Assembly (NCBI GenBank): GCA_037444405.1
Contig: JBBIML010000015.1
Location: 39,550 to 103,549 of the forward strand
Length of the DNA stretch: 64,000 nt
Source: Armatimonadota bacterium
GTDB lineage: Bacteria > Armatimonadota > Fimbriimonadia > Fimbriimonadales > GBS-DC
Reading direction: 5' to 3'
Positions within the stretch are counted from its first letter, which is position 1, and every line of letters starts with the position of its first letter. The position numbers were made by a program, and so were the translations under genes. The notes under the pieces are model-generated. The model ran no database searches and was not told where the DNA came from. It saw only the letters and a list, made by a program, of their open reading frames with translations. Positions 34,941 to 63,804 of this stretch are shown here, one piece after another.

Positions 34941-37139
34941 ATGGCGTTGGACGACGCGCAATACAGGGCGCAGGCAACCAGTTCGGAGCCGCTCGCTCCG
35001 CTGGCAGGCTCGCTGAACTGGCTGCTGTACGGAGCCGCCTGGCTGGTGAGCATCATCAGCGTGCTGGCGTTCCGTGCAGCCCGCATGGAGGCGGACACCT
35101 CCAGCTTCACCCTGTTCCTGATTCTGTTCATCACGCTCGGAACACTGTTGAGCGCACTGCTTAGTCAGCGACCGTTGAGCGAGACCACACGCCTCGTCTT
35201 CGGCTTTCTCGATGCGACGCTCGCGCTCTTCACGATCACCGCTCAGCCCTCCTTTAACGCGCTGGTCAACATGCCGACCGATTCGGCGATAGAGATTTAT
35301 TTGAGCACCTCGCTTCTGTGGTATCTGGCTCTGCGCACGCCGTTGATGGTCTCGCCCCCATCGGTGCTGTTCCAGAATGTGCCTGTGATGGCGCTCTTCG
35401 GGCTGATTGGCTCCTATCTGTTCGCGCCTGCTGTGCCCTATCTGTTCCTGGCGTTCATCGCGGTGCTGCTCGCGATGCTGATTCTGGCGCACCAGATGGA
35501 GTTGCGGGTGCAGTTGCCGCTGGCGGTGGTGGGACGCTATGCGCTGCTGGGCAGTTTGATAGCAACCGTTGGGGCGAGCGGGCTGGCGCTGCTGTTATGG
35601 CTGATGCTGGGCGAGCTGGTATCGGGGCTTGTGATTGGTCTGCCGTTTCGGACGCCGGGCACAGGCAGCCGCGCGCCCGCTATACCAGCCCTGCAGGTGG
35701 GCGCGGGTCCGCTGGAGCTGAGCGACACACCCGTGTTGCGCGTGCGATTCCTGCAGGGGAGTGCCCGCTATCTGCGAGCCGATACTTATGACCAGTACAC
35801 AGGGCGCGGCTGGAACCGAACCTATCTCGGCATGCGCCTGATCGAAGCGGGTGAGCAGGGCGAGTTTGTGATTGTCTCGAACCTGTCCCACTATCCGCAC
35901 GCGCATCAGGTTCACGCGGAGATCACTGTGCTGGGTGGGATCCATCAGCAGTTCTTCTCGCCCGGCATGCCCCTCTGGCTCAAACCGTTTGAGCAGCGTC
36001 GCGCCATTCGGGTGGTCTACGCAACGGGCACCATCTGGGTGCGTCGTCCGCTGACGCCCGGCACAGGCTATGAAATCCGTGCGCTGGTCAGCTCCCAGCA
36101 GCCCGCCCTTTTGCGCGAGCGCGAAGCCATCACGCCGTTCTGGGGTTCGTGGATCACACCCGCTCGCAACGCGCGCGTGATGGAACTGGCACAGCAACTC
36201 ACCGCCGATCAGCCCACCGATTATGATAAGGTGATGGCGCTCAAACGGTACATCGAGACCCACGCCGCCTATAATGTGCATACAGAAGCCTATCCGTCAG
36301 AGGTCGATGTGGTGGAGCATTTTCTCTTCGAGGCGAAACAGGGCTATTGCATCGAGTTTGCGACGGCGCTGGCGGTGATGTGCCAGTATGTGGGTCTACC
36401 GGCGCGGGTGGTGTCGGGCTACCTGCTGCAGGAGCGCGATCCCGACACGGGCGACTACATCGTGCGTGAGCGCCATCGCCACCTCTGGACGGAGGTCTAC
36501 TTCGAGGGCGTCGGCTGGGTTCCATTTGACGCGACGGAGAACGCGCGCGTGATCGATGGGGGCGATTCGGCGACTGGCAGCGCGGGGAGCGAGTCGGCGC
36601 GGCGTCATCCGCTCTATCGCTGGCGCCGCCTGCTGGACGGGCTGATTGCTGCCGGTCTCATTTATCTGCTGTGGAGTGTGCTGTTCTCCCGATGGCTGGG
36701 CGATCACAGGAGCCTTCCGATCGCTTATGCGCTCTACATGCGGCTGGTCTACTGGCTGCGGTTGATGGGCTGCCCTGCCCCGCTCGCCTCACAATCGCCG
36801 AACGACTATCTGCAGGCGTGCCTGCCCAGGCTCGGTGAGGGCTGGCGCGACGCCCGACGCGCCGAAAGGGCAACGGCACTGCTTGGCTCATTGCGGGAGC
36901 CGCTGTTGCGCCTGCTCTACGCGCCGCCGCTTGAAGCCCGCGCCGTCGTAGCAGAGGTGCAGGGTAAACTTAAAGCGCTGCAGCGTGTGCTGCGGCAGGA
37001 GCTGGGCTATTTTCGTCTTATTGGGCGAGCCGCACGGCTGCTGTGGCTCGATGGGTTCGCCTCAGCGAGTCGTGCGAATGCTCACAGCGACGCAGGGGGC
37101 GGAACGCCCCTTATCGAAGTCGCACAACGATGGAACTGA
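34941..37139 (+). CDS. Membrane transglutaminase-like protein (TgpA/DUF3488 type)
   Basis: N-terminal TM bundle, YLR..TYD.YTG.GW, FLF..KQGYC.EFATA.AVM....G.PAR.V.GY and H.W.EVYF.G.GWVPFDAT (Cys-His-Asp triad). Confidence 0.9.
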   Translation: MALDDAQYRAQATSSEPLAPLAGSLNWLLYGAAWLVSIISVLAFRAARMEADTSSFTLFLILFITLGTLLSALLSQRPLSETTRLVFGFLDATLALFTITAQPSFNALVNMPTDSAIEIYLSTSLLWYLALRTPLMVSPPSVLFQNVPVMALFGLIGSYLFAPAVPYLFLAFIAVLLAMLILAHQMELRVQLPLAVVGRYALLGSLIATVGASGLALLLWLMLGELVSGLVIGLPFRTPGTGSRAPAIPALQVGAGPLELSDTPVLRVRFLQGSARYLRADTYDQYTGRGWNRTYLGMRLIEAGEQGEFVIVSNLSHYPHAHQVHAEITVLGGIHQQFFSPGMPLWLKPFEQRRAIRVVYATGTIWVRRPLTPGTGYEIRALVSSQQPALLREREAITPFWGSWITPARNARVMELAQQLTADQPTDYDKVMALKRYIETHAAYNVHTEAYPSEVDVVEHFLFEAKQGYCIEFATALAVMCQYVGLPARVVSGYLLQERDPDTGDYIVRERHRHLWTEVYFEGVGWVPFDATENARVIDGGDSATGSAGSESARRHPLYRWRRLLDGLIAAGLIYLLWSVLFSRWLGDHRSLPIAYALYMRLVYWLRLMGCPAPLASQSPNDYLQACLPRLGEGWRDARRAERATALLGSLREPLLRLLYAPPLEARAVVAEVQGKLKALQRVLRQELGYFRLIGRAARLLWLDGFASASRANAHSDAGGGTPLIEVAQRWN

Positions 37140-38227
37140 AATACAGCAAGCTCACGGAGGAGCAGTTTCGGTCGCCCGCTCGCGCATACCTGCTGACGGG
37201 CGACGAGCCAGTGTTCGCACGCGAGTTCCTCGAGCGGCTGCGCCACGCCCTCTCAATAGAGCCGGGCAGTCTCGATGAAGCCCTGCTGGACGCGCGGGAG
37301 ACACCCGTTGCTGCCGTCGTCCATCAGGTGCAGACCCTGCCGATGGAAGGCGAGCGACGACTGGTCATTCTGCAGGCGGTCAATCGCTATAATGCCACCG
37401 AGCTGCAGGCGCTGGCGCGACTCATCCCGCAAATCCCGCCCTTCAGCTGTCTGGTTCTGCTGCCCGAACCTGCCGAATCGTCGGAACGCTCCGAACGAAC
37501 CGAATCGGCAGGCTGGCAGGCGGTGATGAACGCCGTGCGCGAGCATGGCGTGCTGATCACGCTCGAACCGTTGCGCGGCAAATCGCTGGAGGCGCGCCTG
37601 ATTGAAACGGCACGCGCCGCGGGCAAACGCCTGCGCCCACCCGAAGCCCAGCTGCTGATGGAGCTGGTGGATGGTGTCGCAGAGCGCGCGCTCACCGAAC
37701 TGCAGAAAGTGCTGCTCTACATCGAGCCACGCACCGAGATCAGCCGTGACGACATCGAGCGCGTGGTCAGCCCCTCCCAGCAGGCGCAGGTGTTCCGGCT
37801 CGTCGATGCAATTGTGGCGGGCAATGTCGCCGAATCGCTGCGCTGGCTGAACCTGCTGTTTCAGGCTGGCTCGCGTCCCGAAACCGCCGCCCTCCAGACG
37901 CTCGGACTCATCAGTCGCCAGTTCCGATTATTATGGGATATGCAAATCCTGCTCACGCATCGCCAACCCATCGATAAGCCGGAGCAGATTCAGGCGGATG
38001 TGGCACAGAAGTTGCTGCATGAGCCGAATGTGGTTCAGTTGCTGCAGCGACAGCCCTTTTTGCGGGAAAGGTTGAAGCGGCAGGCGGAGCGGTTCCCTGC
38101 AAGCCGACTCCAGAAGGCGTTCGCTGCGCTGAACGAAGCCGACCTCGCCCTCAAAGGTGTACTTCCCGCTGTAAATCCAGCCGAAGTTATGGAAAGACTC
38201 ATCGTGCGCCTCACTACGCAGGTGTAG
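37130..38227 (+). CDS. holA: DNA polymerase III subunit delta
   Basis: YLL.GDE, TLPM..ERRLV, EL.K..LY, VF.LVDA and L.EAD..LKG motifs. Confidence 0.85.
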   Translation: MELKYSKLTEEQFRSPARAYLLTGDEPVFAREFLERLRHALSIEPGSLDEALLDARETPVAAVVHQVQTLPMEGERRLVILQAVNRYNATELQALARLIPQIPPFSCLVLLPEPAESSERSERTESAGWQAVMNAVREHGVLITLEPLRGKSLEARLIETARAAGKRLRPPEAQLLMELVDGVAERALTELQKVLLYIEPRTEISRDDIERVVSPSQQAQVFRLVDAIVAGNVAESLRWLNLLFQAGSRPETAALQTLGLISRQFRLLWDMQILLTHRQPIDKPEQIQADVAQKLLHEPNVVQLLQRQPFLRERLKRQAERFPASRLQKAFAALNEADLALKGVLPAVNPAEVMERLIVRLTTQV

Positions 38228-53005: not shown

Positions 53006-54679
53006 ATGCGAAAGGGAATCGCAATCTGGCTTTTACTGGTCTGTTGCTGGCAGGCATTTGCCGATGAGTTAGGGGCAGGGCGATTATTCCCGCAACGCCT
53101 GCCGTTCGCCCTTAGCGGGCAGAGTCGCGAGTCGCGCTACGCGCCGGGGCAGCTGCTGGTGAAGTTCCGCGACGATGTGCCGCCGATTCAGCGGGCGTGG
53201 GTGCGTCAAGCGGCTGGCGCGCGCGTATTAAGCACCAACGACTGGCTGGGCATCGAGCTCTGGCAGGTCAGCCCTCTTGCCGATGTGCCCGCGCTGTGCG
53301 CTCAGCTGCTCCGGTCGGGCTGGGTGGCAATTGCCGACCCGAACTGGGAACTGCAGTTAGCTGACTGGACACCGAACGATCCGCTCTACCCGCAGCAACC
53401 TGCACTGCCCCATATCGGCTGTCCGCAGGCATGGGGCTACTGGCGCGGCAGCAGCCAGTTCATTGTTGCCCCACTGGACACAGGAGTGTTGCGCACGCAT
53501 CCCGACCTGCAGGCGAAGCTCCTTCCTGGCTACGACTTCGGCAACGACGATAACGACCCCAGCGACCCGCATGGGCACGGCACTTTCGTGGCGGGCATCG
53601 CGGGCGCGGTGACCAATAATGGCATCGGTGTTGCCTGCATCGCGCCCGAAGGCAGGGTGCTACCCGTAAAGGTGTTCACCGATGCGGGACAGGGCTTCTT
53701 GAGCGACCTTCTGGACGGCATCAGCTACGCCGTCACGCAGGGCGCGCATGTGATTAATCTGAGCCTGGGAAGTAGCTCGCCGATGTCCAGCGTGCAGACG
53801 GCGCTGAACAACGCCTGGAGCGCAGGCGTTGTGATTGTCGCAGCGGCGGGCAACAATAACAACACGAACCCCTTCTATCCCGCCTACTACCCAGTCTGCA
53901 TCGCCGTCGCCGCGAGCAATCTGGACGACACGAGATCGAGCGTCTCCACCTATGGCAGCTGGGTCGATGTCGCGGCGCCCAGCGGGGATGTCTACTCCAC
54001 CCTCAATAACGGTGGCTATGGTCGCAACACAAACGGCTATACCTCTTATGCTGCGCCGATGGTTGCAGCGCAGGCGCTGCTGCTCTATCCGCTGGTTGCC
54101 GACGGACCCTCGGACCGCAGTCAGGCGCGGGCGCAGGCGGTGCGCACCCTGATCGAGTCGACCGCTGTACCCGTGCCAGGCAACTATGTGGCGTACGGGC
54201 GTATCAGTGTCTCGAACGCCGTTCAGCAGGCGTTGACCGTGCCCATTAGCGGGCGCATCACGATTAATGGCTTCGCCGGCTCCTACAACGGTCGCCCTGT
54301 GGAGGTCAACCTGCGTCCGCTCAACAGCAGCACCGTGCTGGCAACCGCGAACACGACCGCCAATAGCACGGGCGACTACAGCGTGAGCTTCTTCAACTAT
54401 CTGGGCTATTACGATCTGGCTATCCGCGCGCAGGGCACCCTGCTGAAGCGAGCCGCCAACCAGCGGGTGCGCTATCCAGGGCTGACAAATGTGAATGTGA
54501 CTCTGGTGCCAGGCGATATAAACGGCGATAATGCGATTGATGATGCCGACCTGTTGCAGGTGCTGTTCGCGTTCGGGCAGAGCGGCACGAACCTGCCCGC
54601 CGATCTGGATGGGAACGGCGTCGTGGATGACGCCGATCTGCTGCTGGTGCTGTTCAACTTCGGTCAGACAGGCGAATGA
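53006..54679 (+). CDS. S8 (subtilisin/thermitase-like) serine protease with C-terminal dockerin-like tandem
   Basis: Signal and propeptide, LDTGV (Asp), HGT.VAG (His), AAAGN, TSYAAP (Ser), and two DDADLL repeats. Confidence 0.92.
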
Positions 54680-55071
54680 AGCGAAGCACACTGGGGCGAT
54701 GGGGCGAGCAGGCGGCGGCGGAATGGCTTCAGCAACAAGGCTACTGCCTGCTCGCCCGCAACTGGCGCCGTCGCGAAGGCGAGCTGGATCTCGTCGCGAT
54801 GCAGGGCGCAACGCTGGTGTTTGTGGAGGTGAAGACCCGCCGCTCCGATACTCTTGGCAGCCCTGAAGAGAGCGTTGACGAGCGCAAGCAGCGTCAGCTG
54901 ACCCGCCTTGCCCAGCGTTTTCTGGGTGAGAACCCGACCCTGCCCTATGAGGAGTGCCGCTTTGATGTGGTGGTGGTCGATCTCCGCGCCCACCGCCCCC
55001 AGATTCGCCACTATCCCGATGCCTTTTTGCCGTGGGATCCACATCCACTATCGCGAAGTGACAAGGTATAA
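54676..55071 (+). CDS. YraN/UPF0102 family putative endonuclease
   Basis: G..GE..A...L...GY.....NWR...GELDLV......VFVEVKTR and RFDVV motifs. Confidence 0.93.
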   Translation: MKRSTLGRWGEQAAAEWLQQQGYCLLARNWRRREGELDLVAMQGATLVFVEVKTRRSDTLGSPEESVDERKQRQLTRLAQRFLGENPTLPYEECRFDVVVVDLRAHRPQIRHYPDAFLPWDPHPLSRSDKV

Positions 55072-55087
55072 TTCTTCAGCGACAGGG

Positions 55088-55714
55088 ATGCGCGACAAAG
55101 AAAGAGTGCGTTTGGCACAGGGAGAGGATCTTGGGATGGTGAAGGCAATGGCGGACGCGAACCGCCACGCGCTTGGTTTCGTGCGAAACGCAATGCTAAA
55201 AGAATGGCAGCATCGTGGCGAGCTGCTTGTCTGCGAAGAGGAAGTGGGTTCCATCACAGGATTCATCAGCTACCACCATCGTCGCGATGGCTGGACAACT
55301 ATTCATGCAGTGTGCGTGGCAGAACCGTTTCGCAAGCGTGGGCAAGGAAGCGCGTTGATCGCAGCCGTTGTTCAGCAAGCCCAATTGCGTGGGCAGCAAG
55401 GCATTCGGCTCAAATGCCCTGTCGATGTACCAGCAAACGGTTTCTATGCACGGCTGGGCTTTGTTCGCGCACGGATGGAGACGGGCAAGCGACGCCCTCT
55501 GGTTGTTTGGGAGAAGCGCTTAACCCCTAAAGTTTCATCGGGATGCCCGCTTTTTTTCCTCAGCCTTACACACTCGCCAAGCGAGATACGCCGCTTGATT
55601 CATCTCTGGGATGAGAGCGGGGATGGACGAGATCCGTTCGCAAGGGTGATCTTTACTCCTTTGTTTTCCAGTTCATCGACACTGACCCTCATGCGTCAGC
55701 TCAAGGAGGAGTGA
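55088..55714 (+). CDS. GNAT acetyltransferase domain plus start of a TGT-like barrel (N-terminal part of an interrupted fusion)
   Basis: V....RKRGQGSALI (acetyl-CoA motif A) and AN.FY.RLGF (motif B). Ends at TGA 55712-55714, after which the same frame stays open. Confidence 0.8.
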   Translation: MRDKERVRLAQGEDLGMVKAMADANRHALGFVRNAMLKEWQHRGELLVCEEEVGSITGFISYHHRRDGWTTIHAVCVAEPFRKRGQGSALIAAVVQQAQLRGQQGIRLKCPVDVPANGFYARLGFVRARMETGKRRPLVVWEKRLTPKVSSGCPLFFLSLTHSPSEIRRLIHLWDESGDGRDPFARVIFTPLFSSSSTLTLMRQLKEE

Positions 55715-56509
55715 GGCAGTGTCATTCTGTTTGACTCAGGGGGTTACCAAGTTCAGATGGGTAAGATCGGTTATGAGCAGCTATTTGAGCAGTTGCAACG
55801 GTTTTACCATGTCCATAACTGGGCAGACTGGTATGTGCTTCCTGATCATGTGCCATGTTCGTTGGATACCGATAGTGAGGTGGAGTTCAAGGTGCGTGAA
55901 ACCATCGATTTCGCCCGCCTTTTTGTACGGCAGATGCCGGCGGGATTGATTGAGAGAGCAATTGGGGTTGTGCATGGGCGCACGGAAGAGCAAGTTTACC
56001 GATGCGTGGAGGCTTATCGAGAGATGGGCATTCGCTATCTGGGCTTTGGCAGCTTCAGCACTTCTGGGCCGAAGGGAAGCATTAATCTGCTCTCACAGCG
56101 CAACCTTCAACTGCTGCAACGGACACAACAGCTGACGCGGGAGCAAGGCTTAAAACTGCATCTCTTTGGTGTTGGCAGCCCGGGCTCCCTCGTTCGCCTT
56201 GCCCGTGCAGGGATCACCCCCACCAGCTTTGATAGCGCGAGCTGGTGGAAAGCGGGCGGCTTTGGAAATATCTTTTTCCCCTTTAGCAAGCAGATTCATA
56301 TCACGGCAATGCCGCACTCAGAAGCAACGCTGACAGGCGCGGAGCGCCAAAGGAACGGACATCGGTGCGCTTTTTGCACCGATCTACGACTTTTGCGTCG
56401 AAACCGTCTTCGGCGTGTACTGCACAACTTAGCGGTCATGCTGGACTCAGTGGAGCGGGCACCATGGGCAACAGTGGACGATGGGTCTTTCACATTCAAC
56501 AGAATTTGA
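55715..56509 (+). CDS. tRNA-guanine transglycosylase-like / DpdA-like domain (C-terminal part of the interrupted fusion; first ATG at 55757)
   Basis: GSVILFDSGGYQ (upstream of the ATG, same frame), PDH.P, IGVVHG, LGFG, LHLFG.G, SFDS.SW and C..C...LHN follow the TGT-superfamily motif order. Confidence 0.8.
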   Translation, partial: GSVILFDSGGYQVQMGKIGYEQLFEQLQRFYHVHNWADWYVLPDHVPCSLDTDSEVEFKVRETIDFARLFVRQMPAGLIERAIGVVHGRTEEQVYRCVEAYREMGIRYLGFGSFSTSGPKGSINLLSQRNLQLLQRTQQLTREQGLKLHLFGVGSPGSLVRLARAGITPTSFDSASWWKAGGFGNIFFPFSKQIHITAMPHSEATLTGAERQRNGHRCAFCTDLRLLRRNRLRRVLHNLAVMLDSVERAPWATVDDGSFTFNRI

Positions 56510-57318
56510 CAGCTGCACGTTTGCAGGTGGTTTTGACCGAGGTGGTGAAACCACAACCCGATGTCGGTACTATCGCCGCTGACAGCGGGTTGTCCATCAG
56601 CGTGCTTGAGAAAACGGTGTTCCCGTTCATGCGTCAGGCAGGTTTGCTGGACTCGCACGGTTTGGCTCCGACCGAACTGGGTAGACGCCTTCATCAACTG
56701 GCAGCTCAACACTCGCCTGCATTACTCGCCGAAGCGATGCATCACTGGCTTTACATTGCTCATCACCTCAATCCAACAAAGCGGTTTTCGTGGGCATACG
56801 CGCAAGTCATAAACGCGCTCTGGAGGCGAGGGGAGTTCCGTCTGGACAGCACTGCGATTGCCCAGCTGGTAGGGATGGTGGTGGAGGAAGCCCACCGCAC
56901 ATTTGGTGTCCCCCTGGAGCAGATTGCTTTCAGCCGGGACAGTGTACGCGGGGTGTTGAATTGGCTTCAGGCGATGGATCCGTCGCCTATTCTTCATCAG
57001 GATAGATTAGCCATTTTTCGCCGTCGATACTTCTGCCATCCACCAGTGTTTTTGTGGGCAGTAGATTTTCTGTATCAAATTAATAACACTGCTTATGGTG
57101 TGCGCCTGTTTCTAACCCCAGAGCGAATTGACCAGCTCTGCCAGCTGTGTGTGTTAGAACCGCATGGCTTAGAAAATGTGCTTCAGGCGTGCCAACGATT
57201 CAGCGATGGCTTTCAGCGCGGTCTGTTTGAATGCGGCACGCAAGGTGGTTTCGGACGATGGATCTCTCTGGCTGTTCCTTATTCAGCGCCCAGTCCTCTC
57301 CCCAGCATGGGGGTATAA
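56464..57318 (+). CDS. Hypothetical protein, possibly winged-helix DNA-binding (BrxA-like position)
   Basis: GGAG RBS before ATG 56464; overlaps the TGT-like gene end; AGLL.....PTELG..L resembles a wHTH wing. Family not recognised. Confidence 0.6.
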   Translation: MGNSGRWVFHIQQNLTAARLQVVLTEVVKPQPDVGTIAADSGLSISVLEKTVFPFMRQAGLLDSHGLAPTELGRRLHQLAAQHSPALLAEAMHHWLYIAHHLNPTKRFSWAYAQVINALWRRGEFRLDSTAIAQLVGMVVEEAHRTFGVPLEQIAFSRDSVRGVLNWLQAMDPSPILHQDRLAIFRRRYFCHPPVFLWAVDFLYQINNTAYGVRLFLTPERIDQLCQLCVLEPHGLENVLQACQRFSDGFQRGLFECGTQGGFGRWISLAVPYSAPSPLPSMGV

Positions 57319-57348
57319 TACTGCACCGTGCCCATTGGGAGACAAGCC

Positions 57349-57575
57349 ATGAATCGGTTTGTGGATATTCTTAATTGTATTCGCCAGCATGCAAGTGTTG
57401 ATTGGCTCACACCCAGTCAACGAAAAGCTTATCATCAGCTGCAAGACTGACGCTAACTGAGGTGGATATTGAGCAGGTGAAGACGAATTTGCGGCAGGTG
57501 GGTGTAGCGCTGTATAATAATGACTCACCACGCCATCTGTGGGACATTGTGAGTCCGATGAGTCTGGATGGCTGA
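57349..57575 (+). pseudogene. Disrupted small gene (frameshift or internal deletion)
   Basis: GGGAG RBS then MNRFVDILNCIRQHASVDWLTPSQRKAYHQLQD* (57349-57450). Another frame reads LTLTEVDIEQVKTNLRQVG...PRHLWDIVSPMSLDG*, whose stop overlaps the next ATG (ATGGCTGA). Confidence 0.55.
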
Positions 57576-57883
57576 GGAGACTGCAACGATGCCGAGCCTG
57601 TGGGATCGATTGGAAACACTGCGGGCAATTGTGGATACTGCACGGGCTGATGATTTAGAGCAACAGCCCGAAGCAGTGCGTACGCGCTATGAACCCTACG
57701 CTGAGACTTACTTCGTTACCGAGGAGGTCAGACACCTCGAGCAGCGGCTCATCAGTGAAGTGCGGGCAGGGCGATCGGTAACTGGCTACCTGTCAGCCGA
57801 TTTCGGCTACGGGAAGACAGCCACTGCGGTCTACCTTTGGAAGCGATGCATGGATAATGAAATTGCCGCCGTACCCCCCTTTT
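57568..57883 (+). CDS. N-terminal Walker A segment of the large ATPase (frameshifted; ORF track runs on to 58131)
   Basis: GYLSADFGYGKT Walker A; joins the downstream ORF as ...AAVPPFLFRQLK if one base is removed from C6T4 at 57874-57883. Confidence 0.75.
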
Positions 57884-60800
57884 CTGTTTCGACAACTGAA
57901 AGATGTGATGCAAGCAACCAAAGGCTGGTTGGCATATCAACTTCAGCACACTCAGCCCTCGCAGCTGTCTTCACTGGAGGACATCTATCGGCGCTGCGCC
58001 GAACGCTCTATCGACGAGATCGCCGCCGAAATCGCAAGCAAGGAGAACATCCCGGAGGCCAAAGCCCGCTCTATTGTGAAGGACCACTTGGCTCAGCGGC
58101 GCGACTTGACAACAACCGATTCACTGCTTGATTTTCTACAGAAAGCAACCGAGCTCGCTACGCAAGCAGGCTTCAAGGGGCTGGTTCTCTTCGCTGACGA
58201 ATGCCAGGAGTTCCTGCGCATGGAGGAGTCAGGGGCGCGTGAAGCCATCCAGATTATCAGTGAACTGGTAAAGGGCATTCGCGCAATGGCAACGGTACCG
58301 TTAGGATTGATGCTAACCCTTCCGGTTAGCCCTACCGAAACTGTCATCGAGGAGCAGGCAGGCGATATTATCCATCGGATGCGAGAGCGGGGTACCGCTC
58401 TGCGATTGGAGGATACTTACGGTCGAGACTTTCCTACAGCGCTGTGGAGGCACTTATGCACGGCTTGTGATGATGTGAACGCCCAGCAAGTCATCGACGA
58501 ACAAACACTGGATGCCTTAGGGCAGCTGGTCGAGCGCAAAGACCTCAGCAACGGACCCCGAACAACCATAGCGGCTTTTAAGCGAATCGTTCAGTTCTAT
58601 CAGCAACAGCATCGTCCTTATACTCCTATTGATCTAATCGATGACCACCTCAATGAGAACCTTGTGTTCGATGAGCGAGGCGGTAAGGTAGCGACGGTGG
58701 TGCGTCGGTTGCTCGAATTACCTGCCGTTCAACAGCACCCTACCCGGCAACGAGCCGTTAAATTGCTGGCTGCATTCCCGCATGGCGTGGACGAGGCGAA
58801 AGCTGGCGAACTCTTCCCCATTATCGTCGAACTGGCTGATAAAGAGCGATGGTTGGGTGAACATATCACTCAACTTTCCGAAGGCTACGCGCTTGTAAGC
58901 CTGCAGGAGCGAGCCGAAGCCCGACCCCTGCTAGACGAAATTATCCGCGACTTCCGACGCCAGTGGCATACAAACACTTTTTATCGCGACGATCGCCGAA
59001 GATCCTTGTTAGTGGCAACCGAGTTTTTTGAGGAGCTATTGCCCATGCTCTTCCCTCCTCGCTCGCAGGGTCAATATACTAATTTTGGCGGACACAAGAA
59101 ACCTGACTCCGATCCGGAAGGGGTTGCTTACTGCGTTCTGGAGGGGAGCTTTGATCGCCTTTTCCACCGTTTTCCCGATCGCAGAGTGTGTGTCGCGGTT
59201 AGTCCTAACAAGGAAGCGCTGAACCGCTTCCAGCCACCCGAAGAAGAGCTCGATATTGACTTCCGCTTCTTTCTGGAATTCCCCGATAATGAACAGCTGC
59301 CAATTGGCATCCATACAGCTAATCAAGACCGCCGTGTTGACTTTTACCTTAATCTATCACGCACTTTTGGTCGACAGTTTCCGCCTGATCTCGCCTTTCT
59401 GCACGATCTGATGTCGCCCGAACGCACATCAGCGCAGGTGTTGCTTGCACTCGCTCTTCGGATGCGAGCCTGGTTACAGGAACACCCCGACACCAGTGAA
59501 GCAGATCGCCAGATGATTGAAGCGCATCGCCGATTGCTCCATCGCTACGCCATGCTGCTCCTGTTCCCTGACGCCGCCGATAGATCAAAAGTAGATATTC
59601 AAGGAATTCAGAATGTCGCGGGCGCGGAGCAGCGGCTCATCGAGGCTATTTTTGAAGCGAAGTGCGCTGAACTTTATCCCTACTATAAGCCACTGATGAT
59701 GTCAAAGGAATGGCGAAGCTATTTGCTACGCTATCGCGATGCATTGGGCAAGCGTCCACTTGCAGAGCGACGGGGGAGGCAACCCTTCACAGGTAGCAAA
59801 GACGAGATCGCTAAAACCTTTGGATGGACGCACACCGTCTTTGAGGCGAGTTCGCGGAGTCTCCAATCGATGGGCTTGCTACAGGTCAATTGGGGCAGCG
59901 GGCGCGGCGCTGAGGGCGAAGCAAGTGTCCTGTTTAAGGAGCATCCTTTAGAAAAGCTACTGCGTGATACCATGCAAGCAGAAGGTCGCTCCAGAAGTGT
60001 CACCACCGGCGGACACAGTAAACGCGTTAAGAGTATAGAAGCCAGCCGACTCAAGAAGGTAGCACGTAGGTATGGATACCTCGCTGACGAGGTTGATGAA
60101 GCCATCGAGTTGCTGATCCTGCGGCAATACGTGCAGCGTGAAAGTGACGGCACTATCCACGAGTTCACTGGGACAGTGGATACTGAGGAGCTAAAAGGGC
60201 AAGCCCAGACTCTGCAGGGGCAGTTAAAGGTTATCGCCTGCTATTTTGATGATGTGCGCTCTTTCGAACAGCTGCTCCACAGATCGCTCCAGCATCTGGA
60301 AAGCCCTGAGGACGAGATTGCGCGGGACACGGCACACCGCTTGCTTCAAGAGCTTTCCATCCGACTGGATCAGTTTCTTAAGGGTAAAGCGCAAGAAATC
60401 GCCAATCAGCTAAAAGGCATCGCCGAGGAACTGGATCGCTGCCATTCCGCTCTACAGCCTCCTGAACTACAGGAGCCTGTCATGGGTGCCGTCGACTTTG
60501 CACGCCATGTGGATGATCAGCGCAAGGGGCTGCAAAAGCAATTCCAGCAGCTACTGCAAAAAAGAGACCAGCTCAACTATGAGGTTGAAGAATTGCTCCG
60601 ACGGGTGTCAAGCACCTCTGATGCAGACACCCTCTGCAAGATTGCAGAAGACTATCAGAAACTCGACCGTGCCCGAACAGAGCTGATTGAGTCACAGGAG
60701 CGTTTGCGTCCCTACCTAATAGGCTTACAGCAATGGCGTGAAATCGTGACGAAAGCGACGATGCTGAGAGACTCCCTCGAACCAAACCATCCCCTGCGAC

Positions 60801-61531
60801 AAGAGATAGATGAGAGAGTAAGTACTTCTATCATGGAAAATTTCGCGCATCGCCGGCTGGATGCACTCTTGGATTGGGAACGGTTCAAAGCCGATGTGGA
60901 CACCATCGAAGATAAACTTAAGGCGGAAGAGAACCGTAAGCGCAACGAGTTCCTTGAACTCAAGGAACAATACGAGCGGATGCTGGCGCCCTTAGTCCCT
61001 CAACGGATAATTCAAGCGCCTTTCGATCCGCAAGAGCCTCAACAATCCTATCTTCTCCTTTATCAGGGTGTGCTGCGTAAGCTCCAAGAGTGGCTTGGTG
61101 AGCAGCAGCAACTTGCCCAGCAAACACTGGATGAATGGGAATATCTTATTTGCGAGCGAGGTATTCCAGCAGAGGAAGAACGCAACCAAACGGAGCAGGT
61201 GCTGCGAGAGCTCCAGCAAGCCGGTGAGCAGCTCAATCAAGGGCATGTCGAAAACCTCGAGAGATGCCAACAGTTCTGCAAGGAACTGGATCATCTCGGC
61301 GAGCGACTGAACGAGGTTCGTCAACAGCTCAGGATGAAGCGTGCTCAAAAGGGGCAGCCTACAGAGGCGGAGCAATCGCTGCTAACCATTCTGGATACTC
61401 AACGCCGAAGTCTGGGAGATCTGCGCCGCCAGCTGAATGCAGAGCGACTGACACTGGACAAGTTGTTCGATCAGTTGAAGGGATTATATCGGAAAGGGCA
61501 TATTGAAATCGAGGTGCGCAAGCGCGAGTGA
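57857..61531 (+). CDS. Large BrxC-like P-loop ATPase with coiled coils (main part; Walker A is in the upstream frame)
   Basis: LVLFADECQE Walker B, LSNGPRT, long helical/coiled-coil region, C-terminal L..LY.KG.IEI.V wHTH-like end; directly precedes a PglZ-like gene. Confidence 0.72.
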   Translation: MKLPPYPPFLFRQLKDVMQATKGWLAYQLQHTQPSQLSSLEDIYRRCAERSIDEIAAEIASKENIPEAKARSIVKDHLAQRRDLTTTDSLLDFLQKATELATQAGFKGLVLFADECQEFLRMEESGAREAIQIISELVKGIRAMATVPLGLMLTLPVSPTETVIEEQAGDIIHRMRERGTALRLEDTYGRDFPTALWRHLCTACDDVNAQQVIDEQTLDALGQLVERKDLSNGPRTTIAAFKRIVQFYQQQHRPYTPIDLIDDHLNENLVFDERGGKVATVVRRLLELPAVQQHPTRQRAVKLLAAFPHGVDEAKAGELFPIIVELADKERWLGEHITQLSEGYALVSLQERAEARPLLDEIIRDFRRQWHTNTFYRDDRRRSLLVATEFFEELLPMLFPPRSQGQYTNFGGHKKPDSDPEGVAYCVLEGSFDRLFHRFPDRRVCVAVSPNKEALNRFQPPEEELDIDFRFFLEFPDNEQLPIGIHTANQDRRVDFYLNLSRTFGRQFPPDLAFLHDLMSPERTSAQVLLALALRMRAWLQEHPDTSEADRQMIEAHRRLLHRYAMLLLFPDAADRSKVDIQGIQNVAGAEQRLIEAIFEAKCAELYPYYKPLMMSKEWRSYLLRYRDALGKRPLAERRGRQPFTGSKDEIAKTFGWTHTVFEASSRSLQSMGLLQVNWGSGRGAEGEASVLFKEHPLEKLLRDTMQAEGRSRSVTTGGHSKRVKSIEASRLKKVARRYGYLADEVDEAIELLILRQYVQRESDGTIHEFTGTVDTEELKGQAQTLQGQLKVIACYFDDVRSFEQLLHRSLQHLESPEDEIARDTAHRLLQELSIRLDQFLKGKAQEIANQLKGIAEELDRCHSALQPPELQEPVMGAVDFARHVDDQRKGLQKQFQQLLQKRDQLNYEVEELLRRVSSTSDADTLCKIAEDYQKLDRARTELIESQERLRPYLIGLQQWREIVTKATMLRDSLEPNHPLRQEIDERVSTSIMENFAHRRLDALLDWERFKADVDTIEDKLKAEENRKRNEFLELKEQYERMLAPLVPQRIIQAPFDPQEPQQSYLLLYQGVLRKLQEWLGEQQQLAQQTLDEWEYLICERGIPAEEERNQTEQVLRELQQAGEQLNQGHVENLERCQQFCKELDHLGERLNEVRQQLRMKRAQKGQPTEAEQSLLTILDTQRRSLGDLRRQLNAERLTLDKLFDQLKGLYRKGHIEIEVRKRE

Positions 61532-62625
61532 GGGAAGGGATGAGAGTCGCAAGCCTTACAGAGCTGATAGACTGGCTGGGGAGAATGCCGCTGATGGTGA
61601 AGATGAACCCGCTCTCTGCTGCTTTCTTGCCCGACGATGTGTGCATCTATGAAAACGCTCAGCAAATGGTGACCATCCTGGATGATCCTGCCCCGCAACC
61701 TGCTAAGCGAATGCTCATGATAGGAAGCGAGCCAGCTTTACAGCATCGCCTCCCCACCATTACATGCGATCACGATCCGCTGACCACCGAGATGAATCGC
61801 GTTTTGCTTAAGCGCTACGACTGGATCAAAAATCATCTGCTGTGTCAATCGCGGATAGCAGATATAATTACCCAGCATGCAGAAAGGGAAGCGATTGTAC
61901 TGATGTTAATAGATGGACTATCATATAGCGACATTAAGCGGTATGCACCTCGGTGGTTGGATTACACGACGCCTGTACTGGTGGATGGAGTTACAATCAC
62001 AGAGCAGGGAATGACACGCCTCGTTGGCAATCCCCCACTAGCTCAGCGGCTATTCGATTCAGGTTTCCAGAACATCGCAGGCTTCACCTATTGGGAACGA
62101 TCCGAAGATCCACTTACCAATCAGATCGGAAGAGCATTTGGCAACCGCGTATATAAGGTCAAGTCTTTTGATGATGTGCTTCAAGCGCTAGAAGATATGG
62201 AATGGCACGGTGCCTTTGTCCAGATTGTTCGGACGGGGCTGGATGGTGTTGCTCATCGTCAGCGTGAGGCACCCAATGTGGCAGCCATCGTAGGCGATAT
62301 CCTTAATGATTTCGAGCGGTTGATAAATCTTCTAGAGTGCAAAGGAGTATCTGCTCAACTGCATCTGGTAAGCGATCACGGCATCTTGTGGGCGCATGAA
62401 CATACCCTACAGCCCTACGAGTTCAGCGGTGCAGACCATCCACGCCACTACACCAACCCACGACACGACCAGCATACTCTGACCGTTGAGTTTGAAGGCA
62501 AAGGATTTGCCCTGCTGGAGTATCCCTACCTCAGGCGCGATTTGCGAACCACCGAATGGGGCGTGCACGGCGGCTTGTCCTTTGAAGAAAGTATCGTGCC
62601 TCTCATCCGTATAAGTACGGGATAA
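61528..62625 (+). CDS. PglZ-like alkaline-phosphatase-superfamily protein (compact)
   Basis: LMLIDGLSY, LD...H, LVSDHG and HGGLSFEESIVP motifs. GTG 61528 overlaps the ATPase stop; alternative ATG at 61540. Confidence 0.85.
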   Translation: MREGMRVASLTELIDWLGRMPLMVKMNPLSAAFLPDDVCIYENAQQMVTILDDPAPQPAKRMLMIGSEPALQHRLPTITCDHDPLTTEMNRVLLKRYDWIKNHLLCQSRIADIITQHAEREAIVLMLIDGLSYSDIKRYAPRWLDYTTPVLVDGVTITEQGMTRLVGNPPLAQRLFDSGFQNIAGFTYWERSEDPLTNQIGRAFGNRVYKVKSFDDVLQALEDMEWHGAFVQIVRTGLDGVAHRQREAPNVAAIVGDILNDFERLINLLECKGVSAQLHLVSDHGILWAHEHTLQPYEFSGADHPRHYTNPRHDQHTLTVEFEGKGFALLEYPYLRRDLRTTEWGVHGGLSFEESIVPLIRISTG

Positions 62626-62643: not shown

Positions 62644-63804
62644 ATGATCTTTCTTGGACGCACCAGCGAAGGGGAACAGGTCTACCTGGATGACATGCGC
62701 TCCCGCGCAGTGCTAATCTGCGGCAAACGGGGGAGCGGTAAATCCTACACCGTTGGCGTGTTTTTAGAGGAACTAATCCAGCGGGAGGATGTGCTGGTAA
62801 TAGTTGCTGATCCTATGCGCAATTTCCATACAATGATTCTCCCCAATCATGAACAAGAAAGCGCGCTCTGGGAATGGGGGCTGAGCGCGAAAGGGATCCC
62901 TGTGCGCCTGTTAGTGCCTGGTGACCCACAGACCCGCTATGGGGTAGATGTCATCAATGCTCTTGAGAGACGAGGTGTGCAGATTGCGTCGCTGCGCATC
63001 AATCCTGGTGATGTACCACCTGACGGATGGCTCGATCTGTTCGGATTAGAAATCACTCAGCCGATGGGCATCGCGCTTTACCGAGCGGTCCAGCGATGCC
63101 GCCAGCAAAGCGGCGTCCATTTCTTCGTGCCTGACATCATCGACCGCCTTCAGAAAGACCCTCAGGTGAAGGAAACCAGTGTGCAGGCGCTTATCTTGCG
63201 TTTGGAAACAGCGGCAAACGAATGGGACATCTTTTCGAGTCGCTACTATGAACTTAGCGAAGTTTTCAGCTTGCAGACGGTCAATGTAGTTGACCTGGGT
63301 GTGTTAGAAGTTAGCCGCTTTGGCTTACGCAACCTGGTGCTGGCAGTGCTGGTGCGCGACCTGTTCCGACGGCGACGCGATGCACGCCTGCGTGAAGAGT
63401 TAGGTCTATCGACGAAGACCCCCAAAGTGTGGCTGGCTATCGACGAGGCGCAGGAGTTTGTACCTGCTGGCAGAGCAGCGCTCGCGAAAGAGCCACTCAT
63501 TCAATGGGTCAAAGAGGGACGACAGCCTGGCCTATCCTTAATCATAGCCTCCCAACAGCCAGGCGCCATCGACCGCGAGATACTTAGCCAGTGCGATGTT
63601 ATCCTCTGCCATAAAGTTACCGCTACTGACGATGTGGAATCGCTCAACCGCTTAAGCCATGACTACATGAATAGAGAATTGAAAGTCTATCTCCGACAGC
63701 TCAACCGAACGGGAGAAGCTGTCATGGTAGATGACACCCGAGAGACAGTTGCAATCGTCCAGATTCGACCACGCCGTAGCAAGCATGGTGGCGCAGAAGG
63801 GTAA
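62644..63804 (+). CDS. HerA/FtsK-superfamily ATPase (DUF87-like)
   Basis: GKRGSGKSYT Walker A, ADP, WLAIDEAQ Walker B, KEGR.PG arginine finger and ASQQP......LSQ. Confidence 0.9.
   Translation: MIFLGRTSEGEQVYLDDMRSRAVLICGKRGSGKSYTVGVFLEELIQREDVLVIVADPMRNFHTMILPNHEQESALWEWGLSAKGIPVRLLVPGDPQTRYGVDVINALERRGVQIASLRINPGDVPPDGWLDLFGLEITQPMGIALYRAVQRCRQQSGVHFFVPDIIDRLQKDPQVKETSVQALILRLETAANEWDIFSSRYYELSEVFSLQTVNVVDLGVLEVSRFGLRNLVLAVLVRDLFRRRRDARLREELGLSTKTPKVWLAIDEAQEFVPAGRAALAKEPLIQWVKEGRQPGLSLIIASQQPGAIDREILSQCDVILCHKVTATDDVESLNRLSHDYMNRELKVYLRQLNRTGEAVMVDDTRETVAIVQIRPRRSKHGGAEG

Follow-up and report, generated by a model that had tools for sequence, protein, structure and literature searches.

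A probable pseudogene for a GNAT-transglycosylase fusion, predicted to mark self DNA, in a BREX-related island of an Armatimonadota bacterium

The stretch of DNA analysed here, called the window throughout, comprises 64,000 nucleotides of an Armatimonadota bacterium (assembly GCA_037444405.1, contig JBBIML010000015.1, positions 39,550 to 103,549 of the forward strand), and its positions 55088-56509 carry a gene in which a GNAT acetyltransferase domain is joined to a barrel of the guanine transglycosylase (TGT) superfamily. The gene is interrupted by an in-frame TGA, and two further lesions lie in the genes behind it. We consider it probable that 55088-56509 is the pseudogene of a GNAT-TGT fusion, a predicted self-DNA-marking enzyme belonging to a BREX-related island that fits the systems named BRC. 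It is a decaying member of a small family that is known from computation alone, and both the fusion architecture and its defence context are already in print from work in silico (PMC12839542).

The interrupted gene and its relatives

The original prediction placed the GNAT domain and the TGT barrel in one 473-codon frame. The two do share a frame, running from the ATG at 55088 to the stop at 56507-56509, but codon 209 of this read-through frame, at 55712-55714 on the forward strand, translates as a TGA stop, and the list of open reading frames (ORFs) holds two entries, 54908/55088..55714 and 55757..56509. The gene is thus laid out as follows.

55088..55711, forward strand: N-terminal fragment of the GNAT-TGT gene, 208 codons, with the GNAT domain (about residues 1-147) and the first two strand-helix units of the barrel
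55712..55714, forward strand: nonsense TGA at codon 209, as read from the translation, the relatives' column and a Logan contig
55715..56509, forward strand: rest of the TGT-like barrel, 264 codons and the stop, from FDSGGY to the predicted zinc site

In the structure model the TGA falls within the barrel, between helix 196-207 and strand 212-215 and seven codons ahead of the invariant Asp216 of FDSGGY, while the boundary between the GNAT and TGT parts lies elsewhere, at about residue 148. The N-terminal fragment matches Pfam GNAT (E 4.5e-14), aligns over its full length with uninterrupted fusions and, in the model, enters the barrel with the elements E155-159, H164-177, E186-189 and H196-207. 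Behind the stop follow FDSGGY (Asp216), LPD (Asp253), HG (296-297), the GFGS loop (320-327), FDS (Asp382) and H425-x-C427-x2-C430...H446. In an alignment of 18 sequences the 17 relatives carry Arg, Gln or Leu in the column of the stop. TGA is moreover the most frequent stop of the genome, ending 964 of the 2116 stop-to-stop frames of at least 300 codons, and the gene's own terminal stop is a TGA as well. From the genome's usage and the residues found in relatives it follows that codon 209 is a nonsense codon and carries no recoding signal, and one C-to-T change from CGA would explain it. The AAGGAGGAG stretch directly ahead of the stop encodes a conserved KEE.

Two other fates of the codon were considered and set aside. 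Recoding of TGA, or its use for selenocysteine, is ruled out by the long frames that end in TGA together with the Arg, Gln or Leu of the relatives. As for a restart behind the stop, the first ATG (55757) lies already beyond the catalytic Asp216; ATT and CTG codons lie closer to the stop. This is the sole TGT-like copy in the genome, the one other scorer being canonical Tgt, whose ORF is intact.

The fusion as such is a real architecture, as the original prediction had supposed, and it is conserved in protein and genome searches alike. When the read-through, with X at the stop, was compared with 5.8 billion clustered proteins and 7999 candidates were scored, 316 matched at E<=1e-3. Among the best 120 of these matches, 114 have 447-540 aa and cover 90-97% of the query at 43-65% identity, the other six have 325-407 aa, and those that bear a name are annotated merely as 'GNAT family N-acetyltransferase' or similar. 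A genome scan with one genome per species yielded 40 loci (designated here by L numbers) from cyanobacteria, Armatimonadota, Candidatus Fervidibacter, Binatia and Desulfotomaculum; a single open frame extends from residue 18 or earlier to residue 453 or later of the window's protein in 36 of the 40, L040 being broken and three cut by contig ends. One intact fusion (WP_015211778.1) comes from a cultured strain, Oscillatoria nigro-viridis PCC 7112, where plasmid pOSC7112.01 carries it. Searched against 1.84 billion representatives, a profile restricted to the TGT domain reached 302 clusters at E<=1e-3 (89 at <=1e-30), among them fusions of ~460-530 aa as well as many standalone proteins of ~305-355 aa, and the family ranges over cyanobacteria, Armatimonadota, Fervidibacter, Binatia, Firmicutes, haloarchaeal plasmids and a hot-spring virus.

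The GNAT part is optional. Among the metagenome loci, which are the best 80 of 290 stretches scored with hidden Markov models (HMMs) built here, 39 are fused, 15 encode the GNAT as a separate ORF directly upstream and 26 show none; the split forms are cut at the domain boundary, and the GNAT-less loci retain the same partner genes. Once copies near a contig edge (10) and copies short of a near-full-length domain in one frame are set apart, 38 fused, 14 separate and 16 GNAT-less ones are left for a comparison of pockets. Between the 52 GNAT-associated and the 16 GNAT-less TGT domains, no column conserved to 85% or more in both groups shows a difference, pocket and catalytic columns included. 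The base handled by the barrel is therefore probably the same with or without the GNAT. The unchanged pocket also argues against the insertion of a pre-acetylated base, and leaves acetylation after insertion or a protein target.

Fold, catalytic residues and the known transglycosylases

The GNAT domain of the original prediction is borne out by Pfam Acetyltransf_1 (PF00583; residues 37-125, 53.2 bits against a cut-off of 20.7), and Pfam GNAT families together cover residues 37-131. The TGT family PF01702 is matched weakly, under its gathering score of 26.3, with 25.4 bits (E 9.1e-6) for the fragment behind the stop, 23.2 for the read-through and 22.2 in the genome search. An AlphaFold2 model of the fusion, built from 115 sequences (mean pLDDT 90.8, pTM 0.74), was compared with solved structures by VIA Z scores and Foldseek. 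Residues 1-152 match Ard1 (4pv6_C, Z 21.6, root-mean-square deviation, rmsd, 2.8 over 147 aa), 4r3k_A (Z 21.6, rmsd 1.5) and RimI (5isv_A, Z 20.6). Residues 148-471 match archaeosine TGT best (1iq8_A, Z 24.8, rmsd 3.0, 282 aa), then DpdA (7ui4_A, Z 21.6, rmsd 3.6, 288 aa), bacterial TGT (3unt_A, Z 21.4) and QTRT2 (6fv5_A, Z 21.1), all TGT matches extending over 282-299 residues; Foldseek agrees, with E ~1e-10 to both the GNAT and the TGT folds. As modelled, the barrel appears about equally near to archaeosine TGT, DpdA and bacterial TGT. In sequence it is remote from all solved TGTs: the best 60 of 168 matches of a whole-protein profile to the PDB are GNAT chains alone, and a TGT-domain profile finds no significant TGT match there, DpdA (7ui4) coming at E 0.93.

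Structure prediction and a comparison of pocket residues, proposed originally as a check on the catalytic Asp residues, find these conserved: D216, D253 and D382 are invariant across 115 fusions, 37 standalone forms and 78 metagenome copies. Invariant or nearly so in the same sequences are F-D216-S-G-G-Y220, L-P-D253, H296-G297, G-F-G321-S-F-x-T325-x-G327, F-G-I362-G-x-P, D382-S-x-x-W and H425-x-C427-x-x-C430...H446-N-L. The last contains a predicted zinc site, H425-x-C427-x2-C430-x15-H446, of which H425, C427 and C430 are invariant and H446 nearly so in the 115 fusions; it aligns with the Cys/Cys/Cys/His site of Tgt, the first ligand being His, not Cys. A global hhalign comparison with 30 canonical Tgt sequences from this phylum (E 6e-5; at a probability of 37% the mapping leans also on motif identity) pairs FDSGGYQV with TDSGGYQV, LPD with LDEC, HG with QG, GFGS with IGGV, FGVGSP with MGVGTP, FDSA with FDCV and HxCxxC...HNL with CxCxxC...HNL. 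With the genome's own Tgt as the single counterpart, the hhalign match is weak and C-terminal (E 0.005). In known TGTs one loop reads the 7-substituent; here that loop bears a family-specific insertion of seven residues with an invariant Thr325 and Gly327, and nowhere else in the interior of the model than at its residues 324-328 does pLDDT fall below 50. To judge from these conserved residues, the barrel of intact members looks catalytically competent, with a pocket seemingly suited to a guanine-like base.

The acetyltransferase half is similarly well kept. GNATs bind the pyrophosphate of acetyl-CoA with a loop of the motif R/Q-x-x-G-x-G/A, present here as RKRGQGS at 82-88, where G87 is invariant and G85 nearly so among the 115 sequences. 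A conserved N-G-F-Y motif and an unusual invariant K-C-P strand accompany it.

The label 'DpdA-like', used in the original prediction, proved too specific. The NCBIfam equivalog model for DpdA (NF041059) gives 34 bits against a 200-bit cut-off, in a partial match over residues 261-386, and the PADLOC DpdA model 33.8 bits (E 3.9e-9); archaeosine TGT is the best structural match, and the large insertion Ins8 is absent. In DpdA, according to the passages of PMC10164549 drawn on here, D95 serves as acid/base and D256 as nucleophile, recognition of the Watson-Crick edge falls to D130 and H181, the pocket is lined by G182, G206 and G207, and the base lies sandwiched between F99 and L236; the zinc motif is CxCx2Cx22H, and Ins8 (residues 256-383), which separates the nucleophile Asp from the zinc site, contains a bundle of four helices. 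Taking those passages with PDB 7UI4, counterparts of D95, F99, D130, H181-G182, G206, L236 and D256 can be assigned in the present family by motif and spacing, and the TIM-barrel TGT fold and a defence-island setting are shared with DpdA, to whose zinc site the predicted one here would correspond. The differences are nonetheless considerable. Only 43 residues separate D382 from H425, against 112 in DpdA, so that the four-helix Ins8 bundle cannot be present; the TGT-like domain measures ~315 aa, against DpdA chains of 413-436 residues; the zinc motif is HxCxxCx15H rather than CxCxxCx22H; and the domain is fused to a GNAT with BREX-like partners, whereas the partners of DpdA are DpdB-K. On account of the ~315 aa, the lack of Ins8, the His ligand and the loop insertion, the family is placed in a separate clade of the TGT superfamily, not in DpdA. 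Pfam scans of the neighbours in L018, L036, L019 and other loci, none of them a search targeted at these proteins, showed neither DpdB (a ParB-like ATPase) nor DpdC, and BRC loci have neither according to the portions of PMC12839542 used here.

With archaeosine TGT (PDB 1IQ8) the family shares the catalytic Asp residues and the barrel at 15% identity. The match is limited to chain residues 11-329 of 577, and the C-terminal tRNA-binding domains are absent here. The likeness to bacterial Tgt extends to a DSGGYQV string identical to that of the genome's own Tgt (contig C8) and, by hhalign, to all motifs; set beside bacterial Tgt, whose structures are those of Z. mobilis, the barrel here is ~315 aa long, lacks the N-terminal lid and carries the seven-residue loop insertion found by hhalign.

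The BREX-related island and its decay

At exactly 55000 the GC content falls from ~0.63 to 0.49-0.56, and it does not recover before the end of the window, which is the end of the contig (C15). The GNAT-TGT gene is the first of this low-GC island, and no tRNA gene was found at the island border. Behind it lie the following features.

56464..57318, forward strand: SspB/DUF4007-like, BrxA-like putative DNA-binding partner, 284 aa (317 aa from the ORF start at 56365)
57349..57566, forward strand: remnant of a small P-loop NTPase, 31 N-terminal and 44 C-terminal codons in different frames, by tblastn
57568..58131, forward strand: 5' part of a BrxC-like ATPase gene with Walker A GYGKT, out of frame after ~57880
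~57872..57885, forward strand: +1 frameshift site in a C6T4 run, GTACCCCCCTTTTCTG, judged from the relatives' single frame
57857..61531, forward strand: continuation of the BrxC-like ATPase gene over 1224 codons, in the +1 frame; Pfam BrxC_BrxD 24.9 against a cut-off of 22.2
61528..62625, forward strand: short PglZ-like protein, 365 aa; NCBIfam BREX_PglZ_4 E 1.1e-6, PADLOC PglZ E 0.004
62644..63804, forward strand: HerA/FtsK-like ATPase, 386 aa; PADLOC mad8 3.6e-23 and HerA 2e-20, NCBIfam HerA models

The model of the SspB-like protein (pLDDT 93.2) aligns with SspB (6juf_B) across 260 of 284 residues at Z 15.1 and reaches Z 9.2 (7zge_A) and 8.8 with BrxA; no Pfam family matches the protein. 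SspB is a nickase. As the DUF4007 protein of Ssp phosphorothioation (PDB 6JUF; identity 10%), it accompanies a DNA-modifying enzyme, as its counterpart would here. The BrxC-like remainder aligns from end to end with the intact 1328-aa gene of L036 at 55% identity, and the HerA-like protein is 83% identical to its L036 homologue, which itself matches Pfam DUF87. The PglZ-like protein reaches 27.5 bits with BREX_PglZ_4, under the 140-bit cut-off, and has no Pfam match; its gene is kept at the same position in L026, L032 and L034-L036 and occurs in 26 of the best 80 metagenome loci.

The gene order GNAT-TGT, SspB/DUF4007-like, small NTPase, BrxC-like, PglZ-like, HerA-like is kept, and it recurs among the best 80 of the 290 metagenome loci. 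In the genome scan the SspB-like gene lies directly 3' of the fusion in 37 of 40 loci and the BrxC-like gene after it in 33 of 40. Relatives that also carry the PglZ-like and HerA-like genes (L026, L032, L034, L035, L036 and partly L022) have a P-loop protein of 168-190 aa between the SspB-like and BrxC-like genes, and some relatives of this type also have an Mrr_N protein. [quoted passage not shown] The same passages propose self-DNA marking by insertion of dPreQ0, perhaps as the final modification, and leave the role of the GNAT open. Judged by architecture and fold, the set in the window corresponds to BRC, so described, in its seven kinds of component, and the gene order matches. It differs in that the copy here has decayed through three lesions, the small NTPase being a remnant that retains neither Walker A nor Walker B. 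The sampling differs too, with 290 metagenome stretches here against the 45 taxa named there.

The first lesion is the TGA of codon 209. The second is a deletion in the small NTPase gene, which tblastn with the 168-185-aa proteins of L036, L022, L026 and L032 made visible: 57349-57441 corresponds to residues 3-33 (81% identical to L036) and 57435-57566, in another frame, to the last 44 residues, while the middle ~90 codons are deleted, and with them Walker A (in relatives GHHGVGKT) and Walker B. In relatives an intact small NTPase occupies this position. The third is the frameshift of the BrxC-like gene, where relatives (L022, L036) read AVPPFLFRQL in one frame and the window needs a +1 shift at GTACCCCCCTTTTCTG. 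Logan contigs agree letter for letter with 55300-57697 (depth ~9) and with 57668-57970 (depth ~7), and the remnant region 57349-57566 lies inside a Logan contig of 2692 nt, again without a difference. These contigs are not independent support, because the one run from which they come is the probable source of the assembly; two other runs of the same study contain almost none of the words of this stretch. No variant letters appear in the Logan contigs, which drop rare variants and are hence silent on minority intact alleles. With three lesions no function is expected in this organism, and its system is most likely dead.

Besides these, a 60-nt Logan contig of depth 2 runs from 57697 straight to 57941 and omits 243 nt that include the Walker A and the frameshift of the BrxC-like gene; it may reflect a minor deletion allele or be chimeric, and the frame stays unrestored. 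In the wider family the BrxC-like gene is split in at least eight related genome loci uncut by contig ends (L011, L013, L015, L020, L024, L026, L032, L040), and in L011, L015 and L024 the split adjoins a 342-aa ORF (cluster 11) that resembles an insertion element. The BrxC-like gene thus seems to be often inactivated.

Upstream of the island, a YraN/UPF0102 gene (Pfam 106 bits; region 54676-55087) ends at 55071, 16 nt before the ATG of the fusion, and a TATAAT stands at 55067-55072, where the GC drop begins.

Predicted chemistry and variation among the relatives

In the intact relatives, a minimal TGT barrel would flip a guanine out of DNA and exchange it for a guanine-like 7-deazapurine, preQ0 or preQ1, from the queuosine pathway of the host; on the pattern of DpdA and the tRNA TGTs, Asp382 is predicted to be the nucleophile and Asp216 the acid/base. 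The SspB-like protein and the BrxC-like ATPase may provide access to DNA and the choice of site, and the GNAT, where present, would act after insertion, its target being either the inserted base or a protein. DNA without the mark would then be dealt with by the HerA-like translocase and the PglZ-like effector. Going by motifs and gene company, we regard base exchange on DNA with a 7-deazaguanine of the queuosine pathway as somewhat better than an even bet for these relatives.

The supply of such a precursor was expected to come from elsewhere in the host, since no que or folE gene lies in the window. Both points hold: all que matches are on other contigs, and the genome-wide search (completeness 98.9%) finds the preQ0/preQ1 pathway there, with QueC (251.8 bits), three PTPS/QueD-like matches, QueE (239 bits), the GTP cyclohydrolase FolE2 (247.6 bits), QueF (83.6 bits) and canonical Tgt. 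A type I FolE was not found in the genome. Given QueC, the QueD-like proteins, QueE, FolE2 and QueF, both preQ0 and preQ1 should be made. A full-length QueC (best E <=1.6e-53) is encoded by 23 of 30 genomes that host related loci.

A module common to defence islands and viruses is a pattern known for DpdA, and the present family has viral copies too. The Thermocrinis Great Boiling Spring virus BK013347.1 (L054 = L132 = L165) carries adjacent separate GNAT and TGT-like genes at 36079-37256, within a replication module beside genes for a sliding clamp, helicase, nuclease and DNA polymerase; its TGT-like gene is itself in two frames. In the complete viral record L133 (73.7 kb) the TGT-like gene lies at the end, and a GNAT HMM built for this analysis found no GNAT in that record. 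The Pyrovirus paper (PMC7689252) does not discuss the GNAT or TGT genes, and its three 'transglycosylase' passages concern a lysin.

Several observations count against reading the gene as a DNA-marking enzyme of a BRC-type island that has since decayed. For every member of the family we infer from sequence the substrate (DNA or tRNA), the inserted base and the target of the GNAT. The partner proteins, those of intact relatives included, give no Pfam match to DUF4007, DUF6079 or PglZ even at E<=1, so that architecture and fold are what tie them to the published BRC set. The loop insertion with Thr325 and Gly327 implies that the base may differ from both preQ0 and preQ1. Moreover, 7 of the 30 host genomes have weak PP-loop matches in place of a bona fide QueC; all seven have a canonical Tgt of at least 509 bits, and four a near-full-length QueE-like protein of 58-76 bits. 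QueC and QueD are absent from the three viral records with a TGT-like gene, one of them rated 100% complete, and the 125 related loci hold no que genes save one weak PTPS-like match in L008. These gaps do not speak against a deazaguanine substrate, since it may come by salvage or from the host, but the deazaguanine remains a prediction. As to the decay, an error shared by both assemblies at all three lesions is unlikely.

What the GNAT does in the intact relatives admits two main answers. The first, possible though not probable, is that the TGT alone writes dPreQ0 or dPreQ1 and that the GNAT acetylates a protein (a partner, itself or a phage protein) as a regulator or a second line of defence. 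It would account for GNAT-less systems with an identical pocket, and the best structural matches of the domain are protein N-alpha-acetyltransferases (4pv6_C and 4r3k_A at Z 21.6, 5isv_A at 20.6), a match that carries little weight, since generic GNATs nearly always match protein N-acetyltransferases best. The discussion of BRC in PMC12839542, as far as its quoted passages go, likewise leaves the GNAT open and suggests that modification may end at dPreQ0. Lasting fusion or translational coupling to a base-exchange enzyme, found even in a virus without other defence genes, better fits a substrate that the two domains share.

The second answer takes up the original idea of an acylated mark: the TGT would insert preQ1 into DNA and the fused GNAT would acetylate its exocyclic amine to N-acetyl-dPreQ1, which we consider unlikely. 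The nearest analogue comes from phages, in which dPreQ1 is, per the sections of PMC10516641 used here, further methylated (DpdM) or formylated (DpdN, a predicted formyltransferase yielding fdPreQ1) on the amine; an inserted 7-aminomethyl-7-deazaguanine is there modified at the same group as in the proposed acetylation, and fdPreQ1 is a precedent for an N-acylated dPreQ1. According to those sections, DpdN has a PurN-like fold and DpdM a new methylase fold, and both are separate genes and not GNATs. In favour also stand the GNAT and TGT genes fused or adjoining in 54 of the best 80 metagenome loci and in all genome loci found, the invariant or nearly invariant G85 and G87 of the acetyl-CoA loop and FY motif, the presence in this genome of QueF, which makes preQ1, and a TGT pocket that is identical with and without the GNAT, as a step after insertion would have it. 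On the other side, 16 loci for which 600 nt or more of upstream sequence is available are GNAT-less with the same partners and pocket, which makes acetylation dispensable for the system, and the nearest GNAT structures are protein N-terminal acetyltransferases such as Ard1, RimI and Naa. Acetylated deazaguanine in DNA was not found in a literature search, the word 'acetyl' occurring nowhere in PMC10516641, and nothing points to preQ1 over preQ0; the literature on DpdA together with GNAT returned, the BREX paper aside, unrelated items only. Wider still, and rather a long shot, is the idea that intact members such as that of pOSC7112.01 write an undescribed DNA base, either N-acetylated 7-aminomethyl-7-deazaguanine, which one polypeptide would make in two steps, exchange in the barrel and then acetyl transfer by the GNAT, or a different guanine-like base chosen by the Thr/Gly-rich insertion of the substrate loop; the module would serve both defence islands and viruses.

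Two further alternatives fare worse. That the gene is functional in this organism, the TGA being an assembly error or read through, or the fragments reassembling as a split enzyme, is highly improbable. The depth of ~9, the comparison with contigs rather than raw reads and the AAGGAGGAG stretch ahead of the stop could be cited in its favour. Against it are the two other, independent lesions in the same operon, the same letters from an independent assembler (on the same data), the fact that AAGGAGGAG merely encodes the conserved KEE, the position of the first ATG behind the stop (55757) beyond Asp216, and a cut inside the barrel, whereas the natural split forms break at the domain boundary. Least credible of all is an abortive-infection effector whose barrel docks on the anticodon loop of a tRNA while the GNAT acetylates the tRNA or an aminoacyl-tRNA: archaeosine TGT, to which the barrel is structurally nearest (Z 24.8), is a tRNA enzyme, the DNA-binding Ins8 bundle of DpdA is absent (43 residues from Asp382 to the first zinc ligand) and GNAT toxins that acetylate aminoacyl-tRNA exist, but the barrel has no counterpart of archaeosine TGT's C-terminal tRNA-binding domains, the gene is locked to an SspB-like protein and BREX-type genes at the position of the BREX DNA modifier, and the viral copy sits among DNA replication genes.

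Self marking in BREX-type systems is usually by methylation, in type 4 by phosphorothioation. If the DNA-marking reading is true, base exchange, perhaps followed by acylation, would be a new chemistry for discriminating self from non-self, and the product possibly a new natural DNA base. As its own copy is dead, the window itself adds little. The gains are comparative: a map of catalytic residues, an optional GNAT with an unchanged pocket, a virus-borne pair, a cultured host with an intact locus and, on the three-gene core, a second architecture free of PglZ and HerA.

This second architecture is cyanobacterial. Behind the trio of GNAT-TGT, SspB-like and BrxC-like genes come a 287-aa protein, an AAA_16/STAND-like ATPase of ~422 aa and a PRTase-CE protein of ~371 aa, in L008, L010, L013, L017, L018, L019, L021, L027, L029, L030, L037, L041, L042 and L043. 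In L031, L033, L038, L039 and L164 (NC_019763.1) the trio is followed instead by a DUF6575 protein and a small ORF, and both variants adjoin a convergent giant DEAD/Helicase_C protein of up to 1938 aa. No PglZ-like or HerA-like gene was found within 10 kb in at least 15 cyanobacterial loci, contrary to the universal retention of HerA stated in the cited passages of PMC12839542. In the Nostoc loci L017, L018, L039 and L041, TnsD/TniQ-like genes and four further conserved genes immediately precede the locus (6-10 kb upstream), which may be cargo of a Tn7-like element.

Elsewhere, in GNAT-less and split loci (L099, L100, L104, L107, L108, L109, L113, L115, L123, L126, L127, L129), the gene directly upstream of the TGT-like or GNAT gene encodes a protein of 690-1170 aa with two to five RNA polymerase alpha-CTD repeats and Sigma70 region 4. 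It contains HARE-HTH in 11 of 12 scanned cases and falls outside the seven published BRC components. In the haloarchaeon Haloplanus sp. HW8-1, plasmid NZ_CP098519.1 carries at 108501-109331 the TGT-like part only, annotated as hypothetical, which matches residues 196-468 of the L036 fusion, used as query, at 36% identity.

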